Source: Ignicoccus hospitalis KIN4/I (GTDB taxonomy: Archaea; Thermoproteota; Thermoprotei_A; Sulfolobales; Ignicoccaceae). Taken from it: a stretch of 32,000 bases of DNA. A program made the translations under genes and the position numbers. Positions 28,035 through 29,420 of the stretch are shown one piece after another. The stretch is taken from the NCBI RefSeq assembly GCF_000017945.1, contig NC_009776.1, forward strand, positions 360,001 through 392,000, in the 5' to 3' direction. Below the pieces are notes generated by a model. That model had not been told where the DNA came from and ran no database searches. It saw only the letters and a list, made by a program, of their open reading frames with translations. Within the stretch, counting starts at the first letter, position 1, and each line of letters starts with the position of its first letter.

Positions 28035-28694
28035 TCACCTCTTAGCCAGCGCCTCCACCACCTTGCCCAGCATGTCAGCCACCAACTTCATCTGGGAGTT
28101 CAGCCCCGCCATCCCCGCCTTCAGTTCGTCCATCGACTGCTCTATGTCGTCCATCCTCTTGCTGAGCTCTTCTTTCAGTTCATCTATCCTTTTGTTCAAC
28201 CTCCCTTCCATGAGCTTCATCTCTTCCCACAACTGGTCGATCTTCCTATTGGTCTCATCGATCCTATTGTTCAACTCGTTCCTGACGTCCTCGATCTTCC
28301 TATTGAGCTCCTCCTTAACCTCGTCGATCCTTTTGTTAGTTTCGTCTATCCTACTGTTCAACCTCTTCTCTACCTCATCTATTCTCTTGTCCAGCCTCTT
28401 CTCAACTTCCCTCAACTCCACTCTGTTGAGCTCTATTTGTTTGGACAGTACCTCGTAGCTCACCTTGGTTTGGTTCAGGACCATGAAGAGCAGGATGAAG
28501 TTCGCTTCGGAATCCGTAATTGGCTTGCCCGCCCTGAGCTTGTCGAGTATTTCTGCGAACTTCTGGGAAGCGTACTGGAAGGCCAAGTCCAGCAGTTGAT
28601 CGGGAAGGGACACGGCCCTTACCCTCCTAGCTTTGTCCGCAATTGTTATAAATAAGTTCAATTCTCTCCGGTCTGTCACAGTCGGCACTTGCAT
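28035..28694 (-). CDS. Coiled-coil protein with a reiterated (R/K)-I-D-E motif
   Basis: KRIDEVEKRLNSRIDETNKRIDEVKEELNRKIEDVRNELNNRIDETNRKIDQL...NKRIDELKEELSKRMDDIEQ. Motif spacing is 11, 7, 11, 11, 7, 18 and 11 residues. The start is uncertain (ATG at 28694 or GTG near 28618). Confidence 0.7.
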   Translation of the reverse strand: MQVPTVTDRRELNLFITIADKARRVRAVSLPDQLLDLAFQYASQKFAEILDKLRAGKPITDSEANFILLFMVLNQTKVSYEVLSKQIELNRVELREVEKRLDKRIDEVEKRLNSRIDETNKRIDEVKEELNRKIEDVRNELNNRIDETNRKIDQLWEEMKLMEGRLNKRIDELKEELSKRMDDIEQSMDELKAGMAGLNSQMKLVADMLGKVVEALAKR

Positions 28695-28732: not shown

Positions 28733-28893
28733 CTTTCCGCCCTCTCCTGAGACTCCACTTGCTGAAACTAGCTTTAAAGGGGAAAGAGATAACAATAACC
28801 TTTCTATCCTCTTTTGAGACTCCACTGAACACGAGAAATGCTTAATCGACAATTCGCTTAAGATCATCTTTCTATCCTCTTTTGAGACTCCAC
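28733..28893 (-). CRISPR. Mini CRISPR-like array: 2 identical 26-nt repeats + 1 degenerate terminal repeat, 2 unrelated spacers (41 and 42 nt)
   Basis: The + strand repeat CTTTCTATCCTCTTTTGAGACTCCAC lies at 28800-28825 and 28868-28893. A 21/26 copy lies at 28733-28758. The minus-strand repeat is GTGGAGTCTCAAAAGAGGATAGAAAG, which has a GAAAG 3' end. The spacers share no similarity. Confidence 0.6.
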
Positions 28894-29170
28894 CGAGCCC
28901 TTCCATATAAAGCCCCAAGGTCTTTCCCTTAAAAGAATTGCGTTCTGCTGTGAATTTACAATTCCTCTGATTTTTCCCTTTATTTGAGAAATTTTTCCTC
29001 TGCCCTTCCCTCCACGATCTTCAGCGTTCCCATGAAAAGATATAAGGGGTTTGAGAGAGTGAATAGTAATGGTGCGCTTTCGAATATAGGATGTTCCCAT
29101 GTGGGCAAAGATGAAAAGGAAATGAGTAAATACAAAGGTTTGGTGATTTGTAATACTTAGGTATCAAAGA
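28894..29170 (-). promoter_or_regulatory. AT-rich putative CRISPR leader
   Basis: This is the most A/T-rich, non-coding-looking stretch in the window. It abuts the intact-repeat end of the array, opposite the degenerate repeat, as expected for a leader on the minus strand. Confidence 0.4.
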
Positions 29171-29315
29171 AAAAGCAACCCAAGGAAGCCTCGGCCCGAA
29201 GGGGCGCTCCGGAAGGGTGGCCAAGGCTAACGAAAGGGAAAGTGTGGACGGGGCAATCGCGATCAAAACCTCAACAGCCCACAGCGCTCTCCAGCTCGGA
29301 AGGAACGACGAGGGG

Positions 29316-29420
29316 TGGAGCCGCCGGCGGGATTTGAACCCGCGACCACCGGCTCTCCGGCCGGTACTCCCAGAGGTACCGGATACAAGGCCGGCGCTCT
29401 GCCAGCTGAGCTACGGCGGC
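29316..29420 (-). tRNA. tRNA-Thr (anticodon UGU) with a 29-nt intron at the canonical 37/38 position and encoded CCA
   Basis: Folded by hand: acceptor GCCGCCG/CGGCGGC, U8A9, D-arm GCTC-AGCTGGCA-GAGC, anticodon stem CCGGC/GCCGG with loop CUUGUAA after removing the intron at 29355-29383, variable loop TGGTC, T-arm GCGGG-TTCAAAT-CCCGC, discriminator U, CCA. Confidence 0.9.

Follow-up and report, generated by a model that had tools for sequence, protein, structure and literature searches.

A very small cas-distal CRISPR array beside a tRNA-Thr gene in Ignicoccus hospitalis

Do two perfect repeats, one degenerate copy and two spacers, set among genes that are unrelated to immunity, amount to a CRISPR array, and if so, which system would serve it? 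The question arises from a 32,000-nt stretch of DNA (hereafter the window, bases 360001-392000) of the Ignicoccus hospitalis KIN4/I genome, a single contig of 1,297,538 bp with 56.5% GC. A sequence-only reading of the window had described a CRISPR-like mini-array with a leader, and had proposed that it is an orphan array served in trans, a remnant, or the cargo of a mobile element. We find that the locus is a genuine CRISPR array, although a very small one. Very probably, it is a bona fide satellite (cas-distal) array of I. hospitalis that is read from the minus strand and comprises a leader, three repeats and two spacers.

Layout of the array and its repeat family

The array has the following parts, listed in the order in which they are read:
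28868-28893, minus strand: repeat 1, leader-proximal, a perfect 26-nt copy (pattern search)
28826-28867, minus strand: spacer 1, leader-proximal and newest, 42 nt, with no second copy in the genome
28800-28825, minus strand: repeat 2, a perfect 26-nt copy, GTGGAGTCTCAAAAGAGGATAGAAAG (pattern search)
28759-28799, minus strand: spacer 2, older, 41 nt, unique in the genome save for chance 14-mers
28733-28758, minus strand: degenerate repeat at the leader-distal end, GTGGAGTCTCAGGAGAGGGCGGAAAG, matching the working repeat at 21/26 positions

The minus-strand reading of the repeat is GTGGAGTCTCAAAAGAGGATAGAAAG, and on the plus strand both perfect copies read CTTTCTATCCTCTTTTGAGACTCCAC. Start-to-start spacing is 67 and 68 nt, and the terminal copy is in register, 67 nt from repeat 2. 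The number, quality and spacing of the repeats and the lengths of the two unrelated spacers are all as first described, and the degenerate copy does lie at the leader-distal end, on the opposite side from the AT-rich flank. Near-identical direct repeats of ~23-47 nt at regular spacing and unique, unrelated spacers of similar length are features of CRISPR arrays, and both are present here. The two spacers resemble neither each other nor any of the other 61 spacers of the genome. In established CRISPR adaptation biology, the leader-proximal repeat is the expected integration site for new spacers, which here is repeat 1. A possible fourth repeat in the start of the neighboring coiled-coil gene was discarded, given that its match of ~10/26, counted by eye, is at chance level.

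The repeat is widespread in the genome. A genome-wide pattern search recovered 66 copies within 3 mismatches and none of the reversed control pattern. Within 6 mismatches there are 76 copies at 13 loci, with 1 to 12 repeats per locus, and these loci are at 89, 260, 290, 388 (the window array), 413, 557, 795, 915, 952, 1010, 1029, 1057 and 1180 kb. With 76 members of the 26-mer family at 13 loci, and not one occurrence of the reversed control, chance cannot account for the window repeats. Far from being absent from other CRISPR loci, the repeat thus occurs at 12 of them outside the window, and two of these adjoin cas genes.

The 63 spacers found genome-wide are all different, mostly 35-46 nt long and without self-targets, and number 0-11 per array. 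Their modal lengths, 41 and 42 nt, are those of the window array. Degenerate leader-distal repeats also end the arrays at 952 kb and 1057 kb (6 mismatches each) and at 795 kb (4 mismatches).

Repeat variants occur within and between the small arrays, which are unusually heterogeneous, with G/A at positions 3-4 and A/G at position 13. Further variation occurs near the 3′ end (GGATAG or GAATGG), so that the predicted 5′ tag is either AUAGAAAG or AUGGAAAG. The variants are arranged block-wise, a pattern that suggests recombination between arrays or a history of changes to the first repeat. Another array, with an unrelated repeat, occurs at 955711-956897, just past the cas1 gene at 954.5 kb, and the genome therefore has two repeat families. 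The best Rfam CRISPR-DR match to the repeat of the window array is CRISPR-DR45 (RF01354), on the opposite strand and with 25 bits against a gathering score of 37 (E = 0.06), which places the repeat outside the curated Rfam repeat families.

The repeat ends in ATAGAAAG at its 3′ side, identical at 7 of 8 positions to the canonical tag AUUGAAAG, and the repeats of sister arrays end in ATGGAAAG. The likeness to the ATTGAAAG handle that was initially pointed out is correct as a resemblance, and would place a cleavage site here. Those archaeal repeats that Cas6 binds as single strands are unstructured. The same applies to this one: the predicted fold of the repeat RNA (-2.2 kcal/mol, z -0.56) is no better than those of shuffled sequences, and the RNA is essentially unstructured. 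A ATTGAAAG-like end combined with an unstructured repeat is characteristic of the archaeal class with an 8-nt 5′ tag (AUUGAAAG-type; types I-A, I-B, III-A and III-B), and the cleavage position in the window repeat is predicted from this class.

The leader and the flanking genes

Upstream of repeat 1, and on both sides of the array, the following features were located:
28894-29160, minus strand: CRISPR leader, ~265 nt, 40% GC, 88.7-95.3% identical to the leaders of 11 other arrays
28905-28911, minus strand: TATA-like TTTATAT at leader positions -18 to -12, a candidate promoter element conserved in 12 of the 13 leaders
28929-28934, minus strand: another TATA-like word, TTTTAA (leader positions -41 to -36), kept in every copy
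29316-29420, minus strand: tRNA-Thr(UGU) gene with a 29-nt intron, outside the array, 155 nt upstream of the leader and on the same strand
28035-28694, minus strand: coiled-coil protein gene, outside the array, with its start codon 39 nt downstream of the terminal repeat and on the same strand

To compare leaders, the 400 nt upstream of repeat 1 were taken in repeat orientation from all 13 loci. In 12 of these, pairwise identity over the ~265 nt that abut repeat 1 is 88-97%, and the side of the repeats on which the leader lies never changes; the homology begins abruptly ~265 nt upstream of repeat 1. At the thirteenth locus (795 kb), leader homology is kept for the last ~50 nt only. A BLAST search with the window leader against the genome returned exactly 12 copies, every one of them abutting a repeat of the family; the closest are those at 290 kb (95.3%) and 1029 kb (95.0%). 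The flanks downstream of the arrays are unrelated among the loci, save for the pair at 557 kb and 1057 kb. The junction between leader and repeat 1 is intact in the window array, where ...GGAAGGGCTCG is followed directly by GTGGAG.

The leader had been put at roughly 280 nt. It is indeed present and AT-rich (40% GC over 300 nt of this flank, compared with 56.5% for the genome), but is shorter than supposed, as the conserved part is ~265 nt long and ends at ~29160. A conserved, AT-rich leader on one side only is a further feature of CRISPR arrays. Given the usual archaeal TATA-to-start distance, the TTTTAA element would place the transcription start ~12 nt upstream of repeat 1.

Two copies of the 9-mer CATGGGAAC, at 29026-29034 and 29093-29101 on the minus strand, are present in the leader, and this 9-mer is conserved in all 12 full leaders. 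The two copies are exactly 67 nt apart, which is the period of the repeat-spacer unit, and may represent a protein-binding site or a trace of the origin of the leader. Two other interpretations of the leader were rejected. It is not coding: the copies have no conserved ORF that begins with a start codon, and 1-nt indels put them out of frame with one another. Nor does it appear to be a decayed array, as the best repeat match within it (14/26) is reached by 62% of shuffled sequences.

Both flanking genes are as first described. The tRNA-Thr(UGU) has its intron at the canonical 37/38 site, a 5-nt variable loop (class-I) and an encoded CCA, and is the only candidate for the Thr(UGU) anticodon in the genome. 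ARAGORN reports it as '???' or Ser(tga), and the orthologue in a congener as Pro(cgg), a miscall caused by the intron. Between the 3′ end of the tRNA gene and the distal end of the leader is a 155-nt GC-rich stretch (29161-29315) in which we found no ORF, no Rfam match and no sequence that is copied elsewhere. Within it, a T-rich run comes after a short GC hairpin, and the two may form the terminator of the tRNA gene.

Could the array have arrived with a mobile element or virus that inserted at tRNA-Thr and used the spacers against competitors? The setting is suggestive, as elements classically integrate at tRNA genes and 155 nt separate the array from the 3′ end of one, and the region from 24 to 29.3 kb is uneven in composition. 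However, the leader and repeat belong to a host chromosomal family with 12 other loci. No integrase, capsid or other mobile-element family was detected by Pfam in the neighboring ORFs, and there is no att-like partial duplicate of tRNA-Thr within ~40 kb, only chance matches of 12 nt or 18/20 nt. Neither spacer matches a viral or plasmid sequence. We therefore consider the mobile-element option highly improbable.

The other flank raises a different possibility, namely that the likeness to an array is misleading and that the repeats are a non-CRISPR tandem repeat, or serve the coiled-coil gene downstream as a promoter or another regulatory element. This gene starts on the same strand just 39 nt past the last repeat with no obvious oligo-T terminator between them, and the word TTTAAA occurs in spacer 2. 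Such an origin is scarcely credible, however. A longer tandem family would not have inter-repeat segments like these, which resemble neither one another nor any other part of the genome. Cas-adjacent arrays share the repeat and the leader, and in a congener the homologues of the coiled-coil gene lack an upstream element of this kind. Given the short distance and the lack of an obvious terminator, read-through into the coiled-coil gene from the leader promoter of a CRISPR array is conceivable.

cas genes, predicted processing and spacer targets

Profile searches of the 32 long ORFs of the window identified no cas family, and genome-wide cas searches gave no accepted match there, which bears out the initial impression that the 32 kb hold no recognisable cas gene. 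The single in-window match, to the cas3 helicase, is sub-threshold and falls on the helicase domain of reverse gyrase. The products of the window ORFs are of the housekeeping kind, namely glutamate synthase, HypD, NMD3, reverse gyrase, PcrB, ribose-5-phosphate isomerase, TrpA, a kinase, a macro-domain protein and a GT2 glycosyltransferase.

The rest of the genome is well supplied with cas genes:
954.5 kb and 1012.3 kb: Cas1
1013.2 kb: Cas2
1015.1 kb: Cas3 helicase core
1018.4 kb: Cas7/DevR
284.4, 405.8, 407.4 and 927.8 kb: RAMPs
286.1 kb: Cas10/Cmr2
408.6-410.6 kb: second Cas10-like ORF
572.5 kb, region 572549-572968: Cas6-like ORF (PF10040, 37.6 bits, above the 25-bit cut-off)
953 kb, region 952972-953514: Cas6-like ORF beside the 952-kb array (PF10040, 22.8 bits; TIGR01877, 27 bits; both below cut-off)

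The marker genes thus comprise two Cas1, Cas2, two Cas6-like proteins, a type I module (Cas3 and Cas7) and type III modules (Cas10 and RAMPs). The two Cas6-like ORFs are putative assignments from weak profile matches, one of them above the curated cut-off, and the Cas6 profile PF01881 has no match in the genome. Type III genes occur at 284-288 kb and 405-411 kb, and the cluster nearest to the window array is ~15 kb past the window. The genes cas1, cas2, cas3 and cas7 lie together at 1012-1019 kb, and the array at 1010 kb is 1.7 kb from cas1-cas2. The array at 952 kb abuts the cas6-like ORF and cas1 (953-955 kb). As these two arrays have the leader and repeat of the window array, the same family is cas-adjacent, and the genome encodes a cognate cas system beside it, as is typical of CRISPR.

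The idea of an orphan array served in trans is thereby supported, in that the window array shares its repeat and leader with cas-adjacent sister arrays, and it is the best of the three initial proposals because the leader and two working repeats are intact. By analogy with Pyrococcus furiosus, we suggest that a short minus-strand pre-crRNA is transcribed from a promoter within the final ~40 nt of the leader. A Cas6-like endonuclease encoded elsewhere would cut each repeat 8 nt before its 3′ end, and cleavage would give two crRNAs, each with the 5′ tag AUAGAAAG and a guide of 42 or 41 nt. These could be loaded in trans into type I and/or type III effector complexes. Cas1-Cas2 from the 1012-kb locus could add spacers at the junction of the leader and repeat 1. 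A literature search for Ignicoccus crRNA data returned none.

What might the two spacers target? Comparison of both with GenBank phages and PLSDB plasmids by blastn gave only chance matches (E ≥ 0.3), exact 20-21-mer halves of both had zero matches in IMG/VR, and no self-target was found in the chromosome. Thus, no credible match emerged from the comparison with viral, plasmid and self sequences that had been proposed at the outset. The missing protospacer match says little, because Ignicoccus viruses are essentially unsampled.

An array with two spacers and a last repeat with five changes could be idle or decaying. In the stronger form of this idea, the locus is an inactive relic, a genuine family member that is no longer transcribed, processed or extended and is drifting to loss. 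Consistent with this are the presence of only two spacers, the 5 mismatches in the terminal repeat and the lack of a target match for either spacer in phages, plasmids or IMG/VR. There is also a precedent in the unit at 795 kb, which has decayed not only in its leader (~50 nt) but also in its repeats, with 2-4 mismatches and an irregular spacing of 90 nt. However, both working repeats of the window array are perfect, and its leader-repeat junction and both TATA-like elements are intact. Its leader has diverged (89-95% identity) within the family range of 88-97%, and the genome has a complete set of adaptation and interference genes. A relic is thus possible but unlikely, and we prefer the interpretation as a bona fide satellite array.

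Sister units and comparison with known systems

How did an array come to be at this site? Some sister units provide clues. At 1029804-1030095, a complete 265-nt leader (95% identical to that of the window) is followed by a single repeat and zero spacers; this locus is perhaps a 'seed' that has yet to gain a spacer, or else an array that has collapsed fully. The units at 557 kb (556821-557980) and 1057 kb (1056890-1057723) have leaders that are 88% identical, and also share the terminal repeat and a 337-nt trailer with tRNA-Lys(CUU) (89% identity), yet have no spacer in common. The common leader and trailer without a common spacer indicate that the cassette was duplicated and then underwent independent spacer turnover. 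The duplication left two copies of tRNA-Lys(CUU) in the genome. This turnover suggests that satellite units are, or were in the past, active in adaptation. Together, the observations at 557 kb, 1057 kb and 1029 kb support an origin of the window array from a copied leader-repeat cassette, which would have been placed next to tRNA-Thr and then have gained two spacers.

A tRNA gene is the immediate neighbor of 6 of the 13 units (those at 290, 388, 557, 1029, 1057 and 1180 kb), at a distance of 158-480 nt and co-oriented in five of the six. The expected tRNA-flanked share of intergenic gaps is 11-13%. If units are placed at random, the probability that six or more have a tRNA gene within 500 nt is ~1.5e-4. 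If they are placed in intergenic gaps, the probability of six or more tRNA-flanked gaps is 0.002-0.004, or 0.01-0.02 when the duplicated pair is counted once. The second null is the fairer of the two, and the tRNA enrichment is moderate and without a mechanism. A bolder hypothesis is that the leader-plus-repeat unit propagates itself as a cassette and founds new arrays, with a preference for sites next to tRNA genes. This strikes us as doubtful. If it were true, and a specific copying or targeting mechanism existed, CRISPR arrays would arise by a route that has yet to be described, and the window array, with tRNA-Thr 155 nt away, would be one of its young products.

Related genomes were searched for the same locus. 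In five congeneric genomes, the repeat is absent within 3 mismatches and neither the array nor the leader has a DNA match. The local gene order is also absent from these genomes, where homologues of the flanking genes occur without an adjacent array (the coiled-coil gene homologues in a congener have 75-80% nucleotide identity). Given this absence of array, leader and repeat, conservation is unusable as evidence of function. A repeat scan of a wider collection of genome contigs gave a single isolated chance match, in a Niabella MAG. In the metagenome Ga0256831, eight contigs carry arrays of a closely related repeat, GAAGAGTCTCAAGAGAGAATGGAAAG and variants of it, some ending in ATTGAAGG. The coding regions of these contigs are 68-80% identical to those of I. 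hospitalis, indicating an environmental relative; there is no leader similarity to I. hospitalis and there are no common spacers.

CRISPR arrays of I. hospitalis have been noted before. The genome paper (Podar et al. 2008, PMC2614490) does not mention CRISPR, and Giannone et al. 2011 counted nine arrays and found by proteomics that most Cas proteins are expressed (PMC3149612). We count 13 leader- or repeat-bearing loci, of which exactly nine have four or more repeats. The window locus, the loci at 795 kb and 1180 kb and the single-repeat locus at 1029 kb probably lie outside the published nine, for which the paper gives no coordinates.

The window locus, then, is no new cas-less system; it adds one small, probably uncounted array to the known I. 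hospitalis CRISPR system. Its value for annotation lies in the tally of 13 loci compared with nine published arrays, and it illustrates cleanly how leader homology, and not the number of repeats, can authenticate a short array. Taken alone, it matters little and is of low general interest. The only possibly new angle is the genome-wide spread of the cassette: the pattern of tiny arrays, a single-repeat leader, a duplicated cassette and tRNA enrichment might repay further work because it bears on array birth.

The closest parallel in processing is P. furiosus. A single Cas6 there processes seven dispersed arrays with essentially one repeat, all of them served in trans; the crRNAs have an 8-nt repeat-derived 5′ tag and feed three effector complexes, Csa (I-A), Cst (I-G) and Cmr (III-B) (PMC4436667). 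As in P. furiosus, the arrays of I. hospitalis are scattered, have essentially one repeat and are in some cases far from cas clusters. The two organisms also share type I and type III cas modules encoded elsewhere and an unstructured repeat, whose end in I. hospitalis, ATAGAAAG, is one base off AUUGAAAG. Unlike those of P. furiosus, the I. hospitalis arrays are smaller, with 0-11 spacers each and a total of 63, as opposed to ~200 crRNAs. The I. hospitalis repeat is 26 nt long and is heterogeneous within and between arrays, and its processing and loading are predicted here.

In the arrangement of its arrays, I. hospitalis also invites comparison with Methanocaldococcus jannaschii, a member of another phylum with a different repeat and leader sequence. 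The multicopy long-repeat/short-repeat elements of M. jannaschii, which Bult et al. 1996 and Jansen et al. 2002 are said to have described, reportedly form many small arrays that are dispersed over a small hyperthermophile genome. Each is said to stand behind a copy of one conserved leader of several hundred nt. Dispersed arrays are usual for hyperthermophilic archaea, and the window array is an ordinary member of this known kind.
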